A stretch of 64,000 nucleotides of DNA from Malacoraja senta (lineage: Eukaryota). The notes beneath the pieces were generated by a model. That model did not search any database, had not been told where the DNA came from, and saw only the letters and a list, made by a program, of their open reading frames with translations. The DNA lies in the NCBI GenBank assembly GCA_038087875.1, contig CM075989.1:10356001-10420000 (forward strand). The letters run 5' to 3'. Made by a program: the position numbers and the translations under genes. Numbering within the stretch: the stretch's first letter is position 1; each line of letters starts with the position of its first letter. This document shows, one piece after another, positions 4,626 through 59,910 of this stretch.

Positions 4626-5317
4626 TCTTGTCAGGCAAGAATCTGGAGGACCACAGACACCCCCTATTCCCACCATGCCCTAACTTAGCTGGTCCGGTGG
4701 AGATAATGAACTAGACGCCTTCCCGATTGACTATGCTGGGGCAGTGCACTTCTTGAAGGCCGTGTGACAGGAAGAGAGCAGATCGCCAAACTCCAGCAGC
4801 CACGCCAAGTTTGAGTCTCACAGCCGCCATGGGAACAATGTGACTTATGATCACTAGAGTTCAGAGAAAGGTTCCCAAACTGAAAGTCGCCGGCTGCTTT
4901 TGGTGGAATGCTACAAACAGGCACCGGAATCAAACCACAGGCAGGCTCCCTGTATCGATCCCAATCACAAGACACCTACCACTCTTTACCACAAAGGAGA
5001 GACAGCAAAGTGCAGTCACTTCTGCAAAATGGGAAACTGAGTAGTGGATGCACAAGGAAGACCACACATAGAATGGTCTGATCATGTTGTTCAAATGTAC
5101 TTTAAGAATAAAATAATTCCTTTCGAAATTGTGCCTTGGGTTATTTTGACCACATCCGAAAGACAGGGAAGGCCCTCAGTCTGGCATCTGAAGGCGCATC
5201 TCAAAAACCATAGCTTCACCAATGTGTCAGCTGGGTGTTGACCCAGGAATGGATCTTAAATCTTTGGAACTGGGCAAGAGAATAACCAACTGAGTCATGG
5301 TTGAATGCTCACTTTAG

Positions 5318-31710: not shown

Positions 31711-33990
31711 GGCATATGCAAACTGCATATTATTGCCACTCCTTCACCTAAATAGCTTTGGAACTTCTTAGGGGAAAAAAGGAGAAAGAAAACGAGTTGA
31801 AATCGATCTCATTTCAAAGGGATGATTCCAGATCTGATCTCCTCCCACAAGGACAGAGAGACAGAGAGGGAGAGGGGAAATATTTCAGTCGCGTTCGCTG
31901 GGGTTCTGGTAATCAATTGGGAGTTTTAAACAAACCGTTTAGACAGGGGAATTCCTTAAAAAGGGAGCTTCTGGGAGCACCACGTGAAAAGGCGCGGCCA
32001 GGTGAAAGAGCCTAGCCACTTCTCACAGACTCTGAGAAATCAAGGAAGAAACAGAACAAAAATAACTGCGGATTTTCTCATTTTTAAAAAGCGACATTTG
32101 CGTGTACGCGATGTGAGGGCAAGGATCTAAAACTGGCCGATTCGCCCGATAGCTTGAATCGGTAACATAAAAAGGTTATCGCGTCACGCATCAGTAATTC
32201 TTAGCTATTTGTAAAAATGCAACAGAACTTGAGACAAGGCTGTTTTATTAAGAGACAGTAGTTCCTTTATATTGGGCCAAAATTTAACATACTGATGCTT
32301 TTTAAACATAAATGTTCGCTATCAACTGCCCCAATATATATATATATCGGTCGTCTTATTGGTATTCCAGGGTTACGGTTTAAGGTGAGACTTAAAAAAA
32401 AAGAATGGTTTGCAACCCGCTTTGCATGCCCCCACCCTCCAACCCAACACGCCTTCTGCCAACTAAGGAGTCTCAAGGATGGAGATGGTGAGTGGGCATT
32501 TTTGAATAGACAATCTTCAGGTTAGTTGGCATTCACATCCCAAGTACTCGAACCCCTTTACATCATCGAGTATTGCGGAGAGCACCCGTGAGTTAATCTG
32601 AATGTGCCTTGTGAAAATTAAGTTTATTTTTTAAATATTATTAAAAGCGTCTGTAAAATGGTGACCTGAATAATGAAATGGTCAGTAATTAAATTCTAAA
32701 CTGAGCAAATATATTCCTTTTTTTTTTAAACTCAGATTAAATTTCACCAACGTCATTGCATATTGGGGTGTTCACTAAAATGAAAATAATCCTTTCCACA
32801 TATGCAATAAATAAAGGTTACAGGAAAAAAAACTTTGAAACGAAAATCCTACTCTAATCCAGTGTTGTGAAAACCTCTGCAAACCCAATGCCTGGTCCTA
32901 CGAGGCGTTGACATAGATTAAATTAGGTAGCCCACCAGATCCCGTCTGTTGGGACATTTTTTTAAAACATTTATTTATTAAGACATGCTGTTGACAGTTT
33001 CATGGTTTCAGTCTTAGTGTTGCTTGTGGGAAGAAAATGCACAAAAAGTGTATTGAAACGCCTGGGGCCGCATACCCCGTTTCATTTCAATCACTCAGAG
33101 TGATCAGATTTTCATAGGTTGCCCAGTGTCGAAATATCTTTCTCCATCTCCCCCTCCCCCCAAATACCCCTCTAATCTAGACGAAGGACATCAAGTTTCA
33201 CCTGTTGCCCAGCCCTGTCATTACCTGTCTGGGATACATCTGTTGAAACCTGATGAATGAGTGAGACAGACAACCAATTTACAAATGGCTTGAAATGTAC
33301 ATCTCTGTAATGAATGAAAACTGCAGCTCTCGTGAATGAAATATAGCCCGGCCTATAAACGAGATAAATTCCCATTTATTTCTGTACGTTAAATAATTTA
33401 TCCCAATCTGTTTACAAAATCAAATGCAAATTCCTACAAACTGTATCTTGTAAGATTCACTTTTCCTAATTTTTTTAATAAATATTTCGATTTTGACTTA
33501 ACAAAATGGCATTTGTAAAACTATGGAAAATATGATCCTCGAGACTGACAGTGTCATATAAATCTTAGAGTATTTTTCGGAAAGGGGGGGTTAATATACT
33601 GACACATAATTTACGTTAAACTGCAGGCTCAGAATCATTTCCAAAGAAATGTGACATTTGTGGCGGGCTGGCTCATACTCGGTCCATGTGCTAAAAATAA
33701 ATAGACTCGGCGCCCAGGCACTGAGATGCTCACGTGGCCTCTCAAAACCTGGTGGTGGAGGTTCAAATGGGAGCCTTTCACTTGCAACCCTCAAGATAGG
33801 TTCTGTAGCTGTTTAACTTCTAGCCGAAAAAAATGAAACCCCGTGGCAAGCGAGGCACCCAACAACACGCCGCTCTCTCCAAAAGAGAGCTTAACACGAA
33901 TGCAACTGCACAAAGGTGGTGAATCCCTCGGGGATTTTAAACGTGTGAATGGGAGAGGGGGATGGGGGAAAGAAAGAATAAAAAGTTCAC

Positions 33991-34408
33991 CTGGGCCGTA
34001 CAGCCGACTGAAGTGATAGGGGTTGCAGCAAACAGTAGCGTGGTCCGCGCTCCTGGAAAAACCCTCGCAAGGATAAAGCCTCTTGAGTTCGAAGAGCTGC
34101 TTGAGATCAGGCCACCTGAAAAGTCTACAAAGCAAGAGCTGGGGGGCCAGGGTCTGCTTGCCAACCCTCACTTCGTTCCTAGCCATTAGGACACAAGCAG
34201 TATGCAGTCCCCCTCTGCTCTCCACCGCCTGAGACAGCAGTTCCAGGGGCTTTTCCTTCAGTCTCTTCAGCAGCGAATGCGTTACTGACTTGAGCTCGTT
34301 TAACGATCCGGCCGGGTCGCTCCAATCCTCCGTCTCCTGCCCATTGCTCCCCGTTACCCGGCTTCGCCAAAGTCGCCGTACAAGGCCCGAACGTTTGGAT
34401 CTGAACAT
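33991..34408 (-). CDS. smad6: SMAD6 coding exon 1 (N-terminus and I-SMAD MH1-like domain), 418 nt, phase-1 end
   Basis: Translation starts [17 protein letters not shown], the SMAD6-type N-terminus (SMAD7 has MFRTKRSA). It contains [23 protein letters not shown] and [11 protein letters not shown]. The exon ends CCAG|GTGAAC at 33991/33990. Confidence 0.95.
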
Positions 34409-35149
34409 GCGATGATTATAATCGCGATATCCGGGGAGTGCAATTTATAACCCCGCAGCTTCAGAAAGCACCCTTGTCCTGTTTCTCCCCCCTCTCTCTC
34501 GCCTTCTTCCTGGGAGGAGGGGGAAAGAGGGAAGGGGATTTTTAAAAAGGGAGATCAGACGGCATCAAGCCGGGGAGAGAGCCGTGCACCAGCACAGCCA
34601 GGCAGCTCCGGGACCAGATCACACCTACACAGTTCACCAATCTGCAACATTCGGCTATAAAAGGGTACTGTGCAAAGGGTACTGGAGTAAAAATCTGCAA
34701 CAGTAACCACTGCAAAACAAAAATTGCAACAGTAACCAATGCAAAAAAAATCGCACTAAACTATCACATCCAGAAAAGCAATGCACAGAGAAAAGACAGA
34801 AATATATATATTTTAAATTCTTCTGCGGGATTTGCAATTCCTATCCAATGTACTGGCCCCCGTTCCCCTCTCTCAAAACACCTCTTGATTTTTCTTCAAA
34901 GCTGCAGTCTTCAAATGCTCTTTTGCCTCCGCTGTAATAGATCCAAACAAATTGCAAGCGAGATCTTGAGTAATTTCGATTCTTTCCAGTAATGCACACT
35001 GCAGACCACCAATGCAACGTGCCAGTTACAGGCGTATACAAGAATCCCAAGTTATTAAAAAAATTAAATATAGACAGGAGTGAGTTGCAGAGTAGATTCA
35101 GCGGGTCCGCTCCGTGCACCCTGTACGGACAGTTAGACTGCACTGTGTG

Positions 35150-39295: not shown

Positions 39296-39434
39296 GCATT
39301 TTTATTTCAGATTTATAGAATTCAGGTTTTTTTTCTGACGATTTTGGACAATTAAAATTTACTGCACCAATCTATAATTCCTCTGGAATCATTTTCTGTA
39401 CTCTCACATCTTATTACCAGCTCTCTTTCATTTG

Positions 39435-40565
39435 TTGATTTTAGCTCTGCATTCAACACCATTGTGCCAGAGCTACTACACTCCAAACTTTCCAAGTTGA
39501 CTGTGCCTGAACCCCTCTGTCAGTGGTTCACCAGCTTCCTGACAGACAGGAAGCAGCATGTGAGGCTGGGAAAGCACATCTCGGATCCGCAGACCCTCAG
39601 CATAGGAGCACCGCAAGGCTGCGTACTCTCCCCTCTCCTCTACTCTCTCTACACCAATGACTGCACCTCCACTGACTCACTCCTCTGTCAAGCTTCTCAA
39701 GTTTGCAGACGACACAACCCTGATTGGACTGATCCAGGATGGGGAGGAATCTGCCTACAGACAGGAAGTGACACAGCTGGCGTCCTGGTGCCATCACAAC
39801 AACCTGGAGCTCAATGCTTTTAAGACAGTGGAATTGATTGCAGATTTTAGAAGAGCTCCCCCTCCCACCATCAACAACACCACAGTCACATCTGTGGAGT
39901 CTTTTAAGTTCCTGGGAACCATCATCTCCAAGGACCTTAAATGGGGGGCCACCATCGACTCCACAGTCATAAAGGCACAACAGAGGATGTACTTCCTGCA
40001 GCAGCTGAGGAAGCACAATCTGCCACAGGCAATGATGGTCCAATGCTATATGGCCATTGTAGAGTCTGTCCTCACCTTCTCCATCATGGTCTGGTTTGGC
40101 TCAGCCACCAAGCACGACATCCGGAGGCTGCAGCGAATCGTCCGATCAGTTGAGAAGGTTATTGGCTGCAACCTTCCCTCCATTGACGAACTGTACACTG
40201 CAAGGGCCAGGAAGCGAGCGGGTAAGATCATCTCTGACCCCTCTCATCCTGGTCACAAACTCTTTGAATCACTTCCCTCTGGAAGGCAACTCTGGACTGT
40301 CAAAGCTGCCACAGCCAGACATAAAAACAGCTTTTTTTCCACGAGTAGTAGCTCTACTCAAGAACCAAAAATCTGTAGCCTCCTTTTGCTCTGGTATTTT
40401 ATTTAATTCACATGTTTAATCGATAATGTTTCATTATTAATGTTTTACGTGTCATTCATAACTGTCACTGTATGTCATGTTGTCACTTGCGGGTGGAGCA
40501 CCAAGCCAAATTCATTTTATGTGAATATACTTGGCCAATAAACTTATTCATTCATTCTTTCATTC
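39435..40565 (+). mobile_element. Rex1/Babar-type LINE, 5'-truncated (RT C-terminal half, frameshifted)
   Basis: GAPQGCVLSPLLYSLYTNDC, then a frameshift to KLLKFADDTTLIGLI...KFLGTIIS...KAQQRMYFL...DPSHPGH; tail aataaacttattcattcattc. Confidence 0.9.
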
Positions 40566-53104: not shown

Positions 53105-53840
53105 CATTCAACACCATCATTTCTTCCAAACTTGGTTACAAAGCTCAGGGAACTCTGCATCCCTTTCCAACTGGTCCTTGACTTGCTCATCAACAGAACA
53201 CAACAGGTATGAATTGATAACAATGCTTCCTTTTCCATAGCCATACGTTCTATACCCATGAATATGTAGCCAGATACTGTTCCAACTCCATTCGTTGACG
53301 ACATCATCATAGTTGGACAATACGGATAATGATATGGATAATACAGAGTATAGGAGGGAAATTGATTGTCTGATTGAATGGTGTCAAAACAGCAACCTTG
53401 CTCTCAATGTCAGTAAAATGAAGTAACTGATTGTTGACTTTTAAAGAAGAAGGCTGAGGATCCACAAAGTGATCAACAGATCGGTAGTGAAAAGAGTAAA
53501 AAATTCAAGTTCCTGGACGAAGATCTGTCCTGGACCCACCACATTAATGTAATCACAAATAAAGCCCATAAACACCTCAATTAGAAGATTGAGTAGGTTT
53601 GGTATTCGGTGTACGTTAGAGAGCATATTGACTGGTTGCATCACGGCTTGGTTCAACAACTTGAACACCCAGGAATGAAGGATATTACAAAACAGTGGGA
53701 AACAATGCCCGGTTCATCACCTACACCACCCTGGTCATGCTCCCATTTGACTCTGCATCAAGAAAAAGGTCTAGGAGTCTGGAAACTAACATCCAGATTC
53801 AGGAACAACTTCTTCCCAACAACTATCAGGCTATTGAATT
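53105..53840 (+). mobile_element. Degenerate Rex/Babar LINE fragment
   Basis: cattcaacaccatc..., ttcgttgacgacatc (FADD-like), caaccttgctctcaatgtcagtaa, aacaacttcttcccaacaactatcagg. Confidence 0.7.
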
Positions 53841-53864
53841 GAATACTACCAACTCGAATTAAAC

Positions 53865-54435
53865 TCTCAGTTTAGTTTATTATCACGTGTGCCGAGGTAC
53901 AGTGAGAAGCTTTTGTTGCTCGCTATCCAGTCAGCAGAAAGACAATACAATTTACTGTGTATTGCAGTACATTTACTGTGCAAGGGAATAACATTTAGTG
54001 CAAGTTAAGTCAGCAAAGTCTGGTCAAGGAAAGTATGAGGGGACATCAAAGAGGTGGATAGTAGTTCAGCACTGCTCTCTGGTTGTGGTAGGATGATTCA
54101 ATTGCCTGATTACAGCTGGGAAGTAACTGTCCCTGAATCTGAAGGTGTGCGTTTTCACACTTCTATACTTTCTGCCCGATGGGAGAGGGGAGAAGGGGGA
54201 GCGGCCAGGGTGCGACTCGTCCATGATTGTGCTGTTGGCCTTGCCGAGGCAGCGTGAGGTGTAAATGCAGGTAATAGAAAGGAGGTTGGTTTGTGTGATG
54301 ATCTGGGCAGCGTTCACAATTTGCTGCAATTTCTTGGGCCTGTTCCCAAACCAAGCTTTGATGCATCCTGATAAAATGCTTTCTATGGTGCGTGTGTAGA
54401 AATTGGTGAGTTGTAGGGGACATGCTGAACTAAGC
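53865..54435 (-). mobile_element. Rex/Babar LINE 3' fragment
   Basis: NFYTRTIESILSGCIKAWFGN...DESHPGRSPFSPLPSGRKYRS...FRDSYFPAVIRQLN. Confidence 0.85.
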
Positions 54436-54479
54436 CTTGGTTCTTGGTTTCTTGGTCCTCCAAAATATTCCAAATGGAA

Positions 54480-54800
54480 TTTAAACTGGAGGTGGTGGAG
54501 GGAGGACTTAAGCCAGAAAGGGTTTTTGGGAAGAAAGAGCTACCTTAAATTTAGTTGCATCTGGTTGGGTAACTAAAGTAGGGTGGAGATTATTCCATGC
54601 TGTAATTGTGCGGGGGAAGAATGAATTGCTGTACACATCTGTCTTGGTAGCTGGAATCACAAATTGGATCGAATGCCCTCGTCTGCTCCTAATTGGTTTT
54701 GGTTCGGTGTAGGTCTTGTAATCTATGTCGAGCTGACCATTTAACATTTTGTAAAAACAGGTCAAACAGTGAGCTTCACGTCTGTCTTGGAGAGGGTTCC
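54480..54800 (-). mobile_element. L2/CR1-group LINE C-terminal fragment
   Basis: RSRRGHS...YSNSFFPRTITAWNNL. Confidence 0.7.
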
Positions 54801-54812
54801 ACTGGAATGTTA

Positions 54813-57800
54813 ATTTTACTTCGGAGTCACGTGAGTGACTATGTGAAGAACCCCACCAGTGCGCCTGCGCGTCATTACGTCAGACGCATTGGCGCAAACG
54901 GACGCGAGGAGCTCCTCTAGTGGAATTGTAGTTTTCAACTACAAGGTAAGTATAAACTTTTTGGAAGTATTTCTGTGTCCGTTTGCTGTGTGTATGTGGG
55001 GATTTTTTGCACAGGCATCATGGAAAAAACGGGCAAGTGGAGGAGGCGAGCGGCATAGCCGGTATAAAGTCGCAATATTGCGGTCGGCGACCAGCCGCCT
55101 CTGACCACGGTACAGTCGACAGCATAGCGACTGTGGATATTGGGGCTGAAGGGAATTTAGTCAGCACCAGTGGGGCAAGGCAAAGCCGATAAAAAGCTGC
55201 GGGAATGCGGTCGGTAAAGGACTGCCTCATACCCTACAACAGTCGCCGGCTGGGAGCGGGGAGAACTGTGGACTTGTGCATTAAAGAACGGAGCCAGCGT
55301 CAGTTGGGTGCTAGGCAACATACAAGTCAGGGTCATGGAGCAAGAGTCAGTTTAGGATTCACCTCCAAGGCTGGATACCACTTTCTGAAGTGGATATTCC
55401 AAATGGAGAACCTATACACAGGTTGCTCCAACGAAACATACTCCAGGAGGAGTGATGTCAGAACCAGGCTCCAGAAGCCAGGTCAGCAGCACCTAGTATA
55501 GGGCTGCTTGATAGCACCCTCATTGATGAGGCGCGTGCACAGGGTCAGCAGAGTTTCCAAAATAAGCGAAGACGGCAGCTGCCAGATGGGCTATTCCTGG
55601 CAGTACGATTTGCTGCTCTGAGAGTTCTGACGCTGAGTCTGACGGTGAGGCTGATACAAGCGAAGACGGCAGCTGCCAGATGTTTTATTCCTGGTAGTAC
55701 GATTCGCTGCCCCGTCAGAGTCAAGAGAGCCACTGGAAAGGACGTGGTCTCTGTGATCAACTATTGTGTCTACCATCAGCTCTAGTAGTTTACGATGGAT
55801 GAAAATGCCAAAAAAGCACGAGATCCCAAGGAACTGCGTATTGCTGAAAGTACTAGCAGTGAACCAAGATAAGGGGTCAGATGGGCGAAGGCATGTAAGC
55901 CTAAGGAAAGTAAACTGCAGAGAATATTGAAGCTGCTCGGTTGATGAACAATGCAATTTGCAAAACAATGGATGGAGGCCATGGATGGAGATGCATCAAG
56001 TGGCACTAAGGTTGCTATGTAGCGCCCACTTCAAGATGAATTGTTTCAGGAAGTATGCCATTCGGTCCAACATCAACCCAAAGTTGCAGCAACTCTGTAA
56101 AGCCCAGCAATGTGCAGTCATTCAACTTATTCTTCAGAGAAAAAACCTCATGAATCGTGGGAAAGAGTTGGATAATGAGGCAAAAACAGCAAAGTTGATC
56201 ACAACATCAATGGTCGTCAAGTCTGCAAAGAGGACGTATCCTTTCAGACATCATACAAAATCCTGGACCGACATCAGGAGCAAATCGACCATTGAAGCAG
56301 GTACTCAGTTGATGTCCTGCAGCAGGAAAACGTAAAAGTGTGGGTTTTGCCTGCCAGGAGCCAGGGACCACAGGTCACTCAGATGACAAAGGAGGTAGGT
56401 GGAACTGGTTCTTATGGGAACATATTAAGGCAAAAACAGCCAAATATTGGAAGCAAATTACTTCAGTTATTATTCTGAGTAGTGTTATTTCCAGCAATAC
56501 AATATGGGCCATTGGACTACCAGCAGCTGCAGACGGCAAAAAGAAAAAACACTAAGATGCATGATGGCCATTTTTTGATAGGCCATGCAATTAAACAATA
56601 AATGCTGCTTCTAATTGCAGTAGTGGATTTAACATGTCTTCAGTAGTTCAAGCAAGATACGGATTGAACAGCCTTCCATGGTCTTAACAGACTGATATCA
56701 GTGTACTAGGATTGGTGCCACTGAAAAGGTATCCATCTGTGGACAGATGGAATATGGAAGAAGTATTATTTTACAGACATGGAGAATCGACGTTTTAAAG
56801 TCTATTGGAAGGCTTATGAGCTACAAGCTTGTTGTTAAATACAACTAATCTGCATGTTCAGTTTCAAATTAACAACACTACAGCAATGGCATGTATTAAT
56901 TGTATGGGTGGAATTTCCATGATAACAAAGAATGGATGTTTAACCTTAAGATTTTTAATGATATAATAGTCAGATTTGGGAAGCCAGATATGACTTGTTT
57001 CCATCCAGACTCAATCACCAGTTACAGAGATATGTGTTATGGGACTACATCGGGAGACAGTAGCGATGGATGTTTCTCGCTATATTAGGATGGTATGTTG
57101 TTATATGCATTTTACTTCATCCTGTCTCATAAATCGGTGTCTGCTTAAAACGAAGCAGTATGCTGCCTCTGGGGTATTCCTGGTACCAGATGGGTCTACG
57201 CAGCCATGGTTCCCTTTGATATTGAAATTTATGACACGGTTTCTGATAAATGTTCCCAAAAGAAGGAAGTTACTGGTGTATTCGATAATTGGAGAGTAAC
57301 ATCCGTCATATGCCTGTATGGATGCAGGGTTTAAAAAAGAGGATTGTCTGAGCATGCTGTGGACATGCTTACAGCAGTCTGGCGGAAGAGTACTCAAAAG
57401 CAGTACATTTGTGAATCTGAGTTGTGACTCTGTAAATACTGCTTTCCCATTATGTAAAGAATGAGGGGAAAAAATTTCTGTGTATAAAAGAATATGGAAT
57501 GTTGTACGGCACATGTCTCAAATATCTTGGATTGACCTCTATTTAATGGGTTGAGGTATAGTGCGATTTATTCACACAGAAGTATATTATTCCTCGGTTT
57601 TATTTGATGAGGTTGGAAAGACATCCTGTTGAGTCTCGTTCTTTTATTTCCAGATTAATTAAAGGAATTTTAATTCCAGACCTTCTAAACCTAGGAGGGA
57701 ATCTGGAATATAGAATTGTTTTAAGCTACTTCAGCAAAGGAGTCTTGGTACGATTCTGATTTGGCCAAGTTCAGCATGAAGGTACTCATGTTTATGGCAC

Positions 57801-58791
57801 TTGTAACATTACAAAGTTACAGATTCACAGAAGTACCTCAGGATTATGTTATGTTTTACATTTTATGAACTACTCAAATGAAGTAGGATCAGGTGTGACA
57901 GGATTCAAGATTGTTTTATTAACATATTCTATGGATCCATGTCTATATGTTAAGACATATTTATTGCAAAAAATTGAGGCTACAAAGTTCTTATGAAATA
58001 TGAAAACAAGATTGTTTATCATTCACGAAAAACCATACAAGATAGTGTCAGTTTAGACTATTTTAAGATGGTTAAAAACAAGTTTTAGTTGCTGCACGTG
58101 TGAACATTGATGGTTTTACATTCCATTCAGTTTAGCAGCAACATTGACGACCAGGGCGAAGGAAGTCCCGTCGATCATATTCTCACAGATCATGATCTAA
58201 TAAGTTGGTGTTTCAACACTTTTACCATTGCCAATACGGGGCTGTTTGCAGATACTATTTTAAGTTCTGCTTAATTTTCCCTGGGTAAAGGGGATACTAT
58301 TAATTCTTTTATTCAAATAAATGAATTACTGCATTTGTGGTACAAATGTTATTATTAATGCATTATTGAATATTCTCGTTCCGAGTCAATCAATGCAGTG
58401 AGAAGCCGGGATTTGTCTGCGGCATGAAATCACAAAGCTTTAAAATCTTCACGTAGTCACTCACGTGACTCCGAAGTAAAATAGTAAGATTAAACGAGAA
58501 CTTACCTAAGTTTGAAGTTTGATCTTTATTTTATGAGGAGTTACGTTGGTGATTACGTGCCCACCACGACCCAACCCTCTATCATAAAGGTCAGATGGAA
58601 GTTCTTGTATTACTCATTTTATTATGATACTATATTACTTTGCTTGTTGTTTTTTGTGATTTCACACCGCTGCTTCGAAGATTGACGCGCAGGCGCACTG
58701 GCGGGGTTCTTCACGTAATCACCAACGTAACTCCTCATAAAATAAAGATCAAACTTCAAACTTAGGTAAGTTCTCGTTTAATCTTACTATT
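54813..58791 (+). mobile_element. DIRS1-type tyrosine-recombinase retrotransposon, non-autonomous/decayed, with intact ITRs and ICR
   Basis: Left ITR 54840-54874 is inverted to 58683-58717. The ICR (58446-58559) is complementary to both the extreme 5' end (54813-54849) and the extreme 3' end (58712-58791), joined at ATT. Coding remnants: RNase H (QINNTTAMACINCMGG, 56865-56912), methyltransferase-like (FGKPD, STQPWFP) and YR (KPYKIVSV*TILRWLK, ~58024). Confidence 0.92.
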
Positions 58792-58934
58792 CTTTATCTC
58801 CTTGATTTCTCTTTATTTCAGATTTCCAGCATGTGCAATTTTGATTTGTGTTTATTTTTTTGATGATTATTGGCTGGAAATGAAGGGGGACTGGTGCATG
58901 CCTTCATTCCTCCACTTCCATCCTTCCACATATA

Positions 58935-59910
58935 ATAATAATAATAATAGATTTTATTTTAAGGGCGCCTAATACCGAGGTCTCTAGGACACCTTACAAT
59001 TTAAGAAACATATAAACATATAATCAGAGTAAAACAAGTTATAAAGACATCACAAATACACAAATAAAAAACAGAAATTGATCCAAAAAAATACAACAAA
59101 ATTCAGAAAACACAACATGAAGGGAGAGCAGCGGCAGCCAAACCGCGCCAGCGTACACTCTCCCTTCCGCCCGCCATGTTGGACATAGACTAACACAGAC
59201 TAACACAGACACTTAACACTACACACAAAATCATCCCCCCACAATGGTTACCACTGTGGGGGAAGGCACAATGTCCAGTCCCCAACCCAGTTCTCCCCAG
59301 AGTCAGGCCCATCGAGGTCGCCACAGTTGCCTCTACGGAGGCCCGATGTTCCTGGCCGTCGGGAGAGTCCTCGCAGCGGTTGGAACGGCCGGTTTCCCAG
59401 CGGAGCCGATGGCACCTGAAGCCGACAAGGCCGCGCCGAGTTGGAGCCACGAGGCTCCCGATGTTAAAGTCGGCGCCGCCGCCCGCGGCTGGTCGCTCCA
59501 CAGACCCGCAGCCCGGAGGTGTTGATCTCGGTGGTCACCGCATACCGGAGCTCCATCGCGTCGACCCAGCGCGGCGACCCAGGCAAGGCATCGCCCGCTA
59601 CGCTCCCCGATAGCGCTCCAGCTCTGTGCCGCCGACCGAAGCTGAAGGTGCTGGGCGGTCCCCGTCAGGAAATGGCGCTCCATGACCGCTGGTAGGCCAC
59701 GAGGACGGGTCGATGAGGCAGCCCGGAGAAAAAACTGCCTCACCGACCAGGTAGGGACCTAGAATAAAATTACCCCCATTCACCTTACATTTAAAAGTAG
59801 ATTTCTCCAACTGGAGACACTAAAACACACTAAAAAACTATTTAAAAAAAGGTGAATTAAACGGACGGCTGCTGGTTAGCAGCCGTTCCCCAACATGGCT
59901 CCTCCTCCAT
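58935..59910 (-). mobile_element. GC-rich non-coding repeat with an L2-like (TTA)n 3' tail
   Basis: Plus strand begins (AAT)n...aagggcgcct...ggacaccttaca, i.e. the reverse of a tgtaaggtgtcct...aggcgccctt...(TTA)n tail. CpG-rich body; hairpin acggctgctggttagcagccgt at the other end. Confidence 0.5.

Follow-up and report, generated by a model that had tools for sequence, protein, structure and literature searches.

In the DIRS-1 model from Dictyostelium discoideum, the transcript lacks both extremities of the element and the recombinase integrates the product at the junction trinucleotide. The ICR is required and the reverse transcriptase (RT) is able to act in trans, and truncated DIRS-1 yielded cDNA in experiments in which a full trans cycle or retrotransposition could not be scored (available part of PMC7192593). 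In that work, PCR across the junction in extrachromosomal DNA yielded no product even though DIRS-1 is active. LgDIRS1, LgDIRS3 and AcaDIRS1 are ATT-ended DIRS1-like elements with short ITRs, while the teleost and amphibian entries of the same table have GTT or TTT ends and longer ITRs (Table 3, in the available part of PMC3266345). Degenerate DIRS families are common in Xenopus (PMC9210276, in part). TOC1 of Chlamydomonas is an active nonautonomous DIRS retrotransposon (10.1101/2022.06.16.496473, in part) and is the one non-autonomous DIRS element that our literature search returned; the same search returned no DIRS element from shark, skate or Chondrichthyes. Non-autonomous groups of LTR elements, namely LARD, TR-GAG and TRIM as well as BARE-2, are standard (PMC10025401 and PMC8969392, both in part).

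Here, we describe a DIRS1-type element with closely matched ends and ruined genes in a 64,000-nt stretch of Malacoraja senta DNA (the window, the whole of the sequence analysed). The element has the following features:

54813..58791, + strand: the whole DIRS1-type element (3,979 bp)
54813..54874, + strand: left ITR, starting with ATT; its first 37 nt pair with the left half of the ICR and its inner 31 nt with the right ITR
54946..55014, + strand: candidate 69-nt intron before the first ATG (55020), recognised by motif, with a consensus donor and a pyrimidine-rich acceptor
55020..56360, + strand: gag relic, frames broken, with inferred limits
56360..56419, + strand: approximate site of the RT-core deletion, where 340 residues of protein P0012, including YxDD, face 318 nt (56101-56419)
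56419..57275, + strand: pol relic (RT thumb/connection, RNase H and methyltransferase-like domain)
57335..58262, + strand: tyrosine recombinase relic, with about 14 extra codons near 57411-57452
58446..58559, + strand: ICR (37 + 80 nt), the halves overlapping on AAT at 58480-58482
58683..58743, + strand: right ITR
58744..58791, + strand: right extension of 48 nt with ATT as its final trinucleotide; its core is 91% identical over 57 nt to that of the element L001 (below)

In layout the element resembles LgDIRS1, LgDIRS3 and AcaDIRS1, with ATT at either end (ATT...ATT), an AAT junction, ITRs of about 61-62 nt in which a divergent half and a conserved half each take up about 30 nt, and a 48-nt right extension. 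The gene order (gag, RT-RH-MT, recombinase) is common to all of them, and the ICR is 37-80 in the window element against 39-86, 42-86 and 45-88 in the published ones. The window element differs in its length, 3,979 bp against 4,680-5,222, in the absence of the RT core, and in having every frame broken (comparison with the available part of PMC3266345). ITRs with a right extension, an ICR whose halves overlap on the 3-bp junction, and NTT ends mark the element as DIRS1-like.

The termini are as the first-pass annotation had described them. Positions 58480-58559 of the ICR are an exact reverse complement of the right end at 58712-58791 (80/80), and 58446-58482 match the left end at 54813-54849 (36/37). 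ATT bounds both ends (54813-54815 and 58789-58791) and is where the two ICR halves overlap; the joined ends reconstruct the circular junction and equal the ICR at 113/114 positions. The flanks of the element differ from each other, so no target duplication extends beyond ATT. The two ITRs form imperfect inverted repeats (54823-54874 and 58683-58734, 88%), with 1 mismatch in 25 sites of the inner pair outside the ICR match, and both terminal mismatches are CpG transitions located at the left end. The 21-nt ICR core occurs only twice in the window at three or fewer mismatches (chance mean 0.01). At the element's 3' end, the ICR and the right end, 152 nt apart, form a very stable predicted hairpin (folding z = -18). 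The ICR and inner right ITR hold 10 CpGs at an observed/expected ratio (o/e) of 1.6, against 0.40-0.46 in the coding relic, a weak contrast, as its meaning depends on the ancestral CpG level. Within the right extension, 58764-58770 is a consensus splice-donor-like motif that is retained in L001 near 372-380, inside the best-conserved core of the ICR and end; judged by its sequence, it is a possible U1 site.

The interior, which had been reported as full of stops and frameshifts, is decayed more severely than that, with the RT core deleted rather than merely mutated. Its relics lie on one strand in the DIRS order of gag, RT-RNase H-methyltransferase and recombinase, with RT present only as thumb/connection. 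P0012 residues 329-667, which would include the RT core with Y(L/I)DD, are unmatched in the element, and 318 nt stand where about 1,020 are needed. The gag relic matches the gag part of P0011 and P0012 at 55988-56101 (47-50% over 38 aa) and contains a 53-nt duplication (55564-55616 and 55658-55710, 91%). The pol relic has 3-5 stops and 7-12 frameshifts (four references), with about 41 codons missing from RNase H at 56914. The recombinase relic has 7-8 stops and 8-10 frameshifts (five references); its HSTR motif now reads HSV-stop, and the last Tyr codon is retained. Under a stricter penalty, pol has 4-7 stops and 5-7 frameshifts and the recombinase 7-9 stops and 4-8 frameshifts. Pol and recombinase together thus carry roughly 10-13 stops and 15-22 frameshifts, the single positions being approximate because the references are merely 33-41% identical to the relic. 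Free-gap alignments across gag-RT gave spurious stop counts and were used for block placement only.

The longest forward stop-free run within the element is 134 codons. A Pfam search with all six frames read through as X matched 0 families, and a word-based protein search with one X-read frame scored 0 of 874 candidates. Five recombinase pieces were matched using phmmer, and searches from these yielded 18 and 15 longer proteins. With the RT core absent and the recombinase frame not open, the element is not autonomous. Low interior CpG (o/e 0.40-0.46) was considered as a sign of decay and rejected, the intact L001 coding region having 0.48. The splice consensus of the candidate intron is intact despite the ruined coding region.

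Ends and interior give very different estimates of change. Paired end sites show 2 mismatches in 139, which puts the drift of each copy at about 0.7% (95% range 0.09-2.6%); no more than two end mismatches would be expected with P = 9e-5 at 5% drift per copy and 2e-10 at 10%. The 5-7 stops in about 290 recombinase codons fit about 15% substitution or more, where the lower count sets aside two of the seven stops (57425 and 57455) that lie in or beside the extra codons. When the L001 recombinase frame was mutated at random in simulations, a level of 15% produced 4.6-5.2 stops on average, and at 5% only 2-4% of 300 runs reached five stops or more. With the ends at about 0.7% and the interior at about 15%, the two are therefore of different ages. 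End-to-ICR identity dates the last hop only. At a shark mutation rate of 7e-10 per generation (available part of PMC10587355), 0.7% drift corresponds to about ten million generations, and the 0.09-2.6% range runs to millions. The true age of the last hop may be far below ten million generations because CpG changes run faster. In so slowly mutating a host, a last hop could be called recent without implying that a helper is active today.

Intact relatives were sought by scanning for the ICR core, which recovered one locus in metagenome contigs, 0 in viral contigs and 0 in prokaryote genomes:

Contig JAAUXV010027547.1, 1-2849 (L001): DIRS1 element, 3' half only, apparently young and with its frames open, filed among metagenome contigs

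The ICR cores of L001 and the window element are identical at 54/59 positions. As in the window element, the L001 ICR has an arm complementary to the right end (85/85), with 146 nt between the arms; unlike the window element, L001 has open frames for pol (365 aa, truncated where the contig stops) and recombinase (331 aa). Its proteins are merely 33-41% identical to the relic, and L001 is therefore not the helper. The closest protein is P0001, a 153-aa piece with 47% identity in BLAST and 58% once frames are taken into account in the alignment. At 34% identity to the relic, recombinase P0030 of the little skate is no closer than invertebrate recombinases. Among the relatives found by phmmer, by the follow-on searches and as L001, there was no close intact protein to represent the helper.

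The element is wholly or partly present in six of the seven sequencing runs listed. Runs X1 and X2 are from one organism (A), and X3 and X6 carry two other organism labels. For a survey of the family, all contigs of these four runs were aligned to 53800-59800 at 80% likeness; X5 (share 0.08), X4 and X7 stood outside the survey, and the uncovered parts of X3 and X6 were left unused. Of the element's 31-mers, fractions of 0.63 and 0.57 recur unchanged in the two organism A runs, which limits its distance from the closest sequence in that organism to about 1.5-1.8%. Contigs aligned on 53800-59800, counting those of the flank repeats, numbered 78,595 (X1) and 46,643 (X2). Across the 16 interior bins, summed depth had a median of 93,003 (X1) and 10,879 (X2), compared with a median of 37 (X1) and 3.5 (X2) for the eight long records listed per run. 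Interior depth is thus about 2,500x (X1) and 3,100x (X2) that of the long records, an order of magnitude and not a copy number, as summed contig depth differs from copy number and X1 counts are partly lost. As an order of magnitude only, the family numbers thousands of copies. The indels, joints and single pieces described from these runs are the ones listed (12/102, 15/178 and 32/124,690, respectively), and contigs with an indel near an end are undercounted, which could inflate the majority share of broken forms.

Depth outside the right end drops about 100- to 200-fold, from 1,405,363 to 12,887 in X1 and from 407,151 to 2,015 in X2. In one X1 contig the element stops exactly at its junction trinucleotide and another flank follows (58482 to 54047), and no empty insertion site is found among the 15 of 178 joints listed (contigs only). 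Depth in the ICR bin (58423-58824) is 21x (X1) and 57x (X2) the interior median, part of which is double counting; the excess points to other families, or to short derivatives, that share these ends. One X1 joint (depth 145) skips 2,094 bases (56427 to 58522) and lands inside the ICR, representing a shorter derivative, and 37 X2 contigs have the same right end with a different inner ITR. At 55664-55700 and 58233-58451, X3 and X6 contigs (depth 14-17 each) share variants that are rare or absent in organism A, and those on the 3' side (58233-58451) change to unlike sequence before 58233; they may represent a single subfamily with an internal deletion, or a single old copy that both share. At 56155, 56339 and 57734, almost the whole depth of X1 departs from the window sequence: the window copy may be of a minor branch or carry private changes, or organism A may be a sister species.

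Two further features belong to the surroundings of the element:

54508..54802, - strand: 5'-truncated LINE-type RT fragment in the left flank, ending about 10 nt from the element and outside it
33791-34444, - strand: MH1-domain exon whose start lies about 20 kb from the element

The LINE fragment is part of a nest of such fragments (53789-54802), in which two opposite 3' ends form a 51-nt, 76% inverted repeat (53789-53839 and 54096-54146). The LINE truncation point is marked by an X3 contig that agrees with 54623-54802 at all but 3 positions and then diverges. To the right of the element, 59190-59760 is GC- and CpG-rich, has very high depth in organism A, and is another repeat family. The MH1-domain exon we take to be SMAD6/7-like, and the longest open stretch of the window (266 codons, 39356-40406, + strand) is presumably a LINE-type RT fragment.

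Whether the lesions of the window copy are its own was assessed from the indels listed in the runs (12 of 102, nine of them interior), of which six in reference-aligned regions were tested along with one joint, using N for added bases; variants 55264, 55282 and 55388 lie outside the test, the reference lacking there. When the seven variants were compared to intact relatives, three fit clearly better than the window, three weakly better and one worse. The clearly better forms are at 57043 (5/5 references), at 57699 (5/5) and at the joint that removes the extra codons 57411-57452 (4/5). Placed at random positions as a control, they were matched or beaten in 1/30, 2/30 and 1/30 trials, respectively, mostly at neighbouring sites, with two further ties after rounding for 57043. 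The weak improvements are at 55868 (carried by 27% of X1 and 21% of X2), 56801 and 56837, and the worse fit is at 56951. In X1 and X2, the intact-fitting form accounts for 11% and 19% of depth at 57043, 12% and 0.7% at 57699, and about 1-3% at the joint. With the intact-fitting form in the minority at all three lesions, the damage is therefore inherited. At these lesions, the broken state of the window copy is the common state of its family, with less broken relatives alongside. A unique copy with private lesions, which the first-pass annotation had named as the outcome that would count against its reading, is not what the runs contain: two of them hold a very large family, and at the testable lesions most of its depth is in the broken state. 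Of the 30 mapped lesions, 13 are bridged by three X3 contigs, which differ from the window by 5 substitutions and 0 gaps over 635 nt; their origin could be the element's own locus in a relative and not other copies.

We favor, with a probability of roughly 0.8, the reading that the element belongs to a non-autonomous DIRS1-type lineage amplified in trans over many rounds. The element has no RT core and a broken recombinase, yet it has matched ends and many relatives, and both enzymes must therefore have been borrowed. An ancestor would have lost its RT core and then accumulated stops, frameshifts and indels while still being copied. Following the DIRS-1 model, each round would begin with transcription starting within the left ITR, followed by reverse transcription with proteins that an intact DIRS1 element of that cell supplies. 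The right ITR would then serve as the template for a new left ITR, and the ICR as that for both extremities, resetting end-to-ICR identity with each hop, and the product would be integrated at ATT, probably by the helper's recombinase because that of the element is broken. Selection would act on the cis signals alone, with the ends staying matched, the interior rotting and daughters inheriting the lesions, and the window copy would be one late, undated product of the lineage.

The first-pass annotation had proposed that an already non-autonomous lineage was recently mobilized in trans by a helper still active in this genome. The first part of this proposal holds up, in that the copy moved after its genes were dead and its lesions were inherited, as the majority broken state in X1 and X2 indicates. 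That the move was recent is unsupported as stated, the end clock spanning up to millions of generations and both mismatches being fast CpG changes. The active helper is likewise unsupported as stated: a helper must have existed at the last hop, and none was identified. Because the ICR/right-extension core hardly varies between elements whose proteins are only about 35-40% alike, we regard it as possible, though doubtful, that this near full-length lineage, devoid of working genes, has long out-replicated its own helper and is moved by distantly related DIRS1 families, as a parasite of a parasite. In that case the ICR core would serve as a general signal, recognised in trans by different families, and the high depth at the ends would represent a swarm of hitch-hikers.

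Three other histories would account for part of these data. An old copy may have decayed in place, ends included, and then been multiplied in a single burst by a newly arrived helper. Such a burst would re-match the ends to the decayed ICR, and, as identity resets with every hop, one round would look the same as many. The ICR core shared with L001 excludes this decay weakly (P = 0.11 at 15%, 0.014 at 20%) and so favors, to the same slight degree, continuous selection on the signal over a single revival. The lesions, however, differ in frequency (about 75%, 80-90% and 97-99% of depth), suggesting stepwise gain during amplification, and the CpG richness of the ICR and inner right ITR relative to the relic also argues, weakly, against prior decay; we consider a one-off revival unlikely. 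Passive multiplication inside segmental duplications, a satellite or a larger mobile unit appears very unlikely. Both flanks are high-depth repeats, which leaves the left boundary unreadable from depth, and the lack of an empty site among the listed joints agrees with passive copying, but this process would leave the ends un-rematched to the ICR, and it fits poorly with the roughly 100-fold fall in depth outside the right end and with the contig that carries the left terminus in another flank.

A single old insertion with private decay, in which gene conversion made the ends alike or assembly errors made the lesions, is already largely refuted and hardly credible. The proximity of the ICR and right end within a very stable hairpin is in its favor, as are some window letters that are near-absent from X1. 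Against it, the left end lies 3.6 kb off and fits two separate templates equally closely, 57-63% of the 31-mers of the element are unchanged in organism A, and the broken frames are repeated without gaps in independent contigs. Amplification in trans over many rounds is the reading that we retain.

The family offers a natural test of the DIRS1 model, both for the rebuilding of ends from the ICR with each hop and for a whole cycle, including integration, on borrowed proteins. For annotation, a DIRS copy with wrecked genes is not necessarily old, and end-to-ICR identity can be used as a clock; dating by proteins and Pfam scans would miss such families altogether, as with the 0 Pfam matches here. 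A family with nested lesions and shorter derivatives would also allow comparative mapping of the minimal cis signals. Our literature search, which lay outside Repbase and most subscription journals, found no description of a vertebrate ITR/ICR family that is gene-dead and mass-copied. Like the window element, Dictyostelium DIRS-1 has an ICR complementary to both extremities; unlike it, DIRS-1 is autonomous. TOC1 is non-autonomous, multi-copy and of the DIRS order, as the window element is, but resides in an alga. TOC1 has split direct repeats instead of ITR/ICR ends. LARD, TR-GAG and TRIM elements, as well as BARE-2, likewise keep intact cis signals around a mutated or deleted interior and are moved by an autonomous partner; they differ in having direct LTRs and an integrase, where the window element has ITR/ICR ends and depends on a tyrosine recombinase. 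Borrowing in trans is well known as a lifestyle of other jumping genes and is little documented for the DIRS1 type, for which the window family, real as an observation and expected in principle, is a probable instance.
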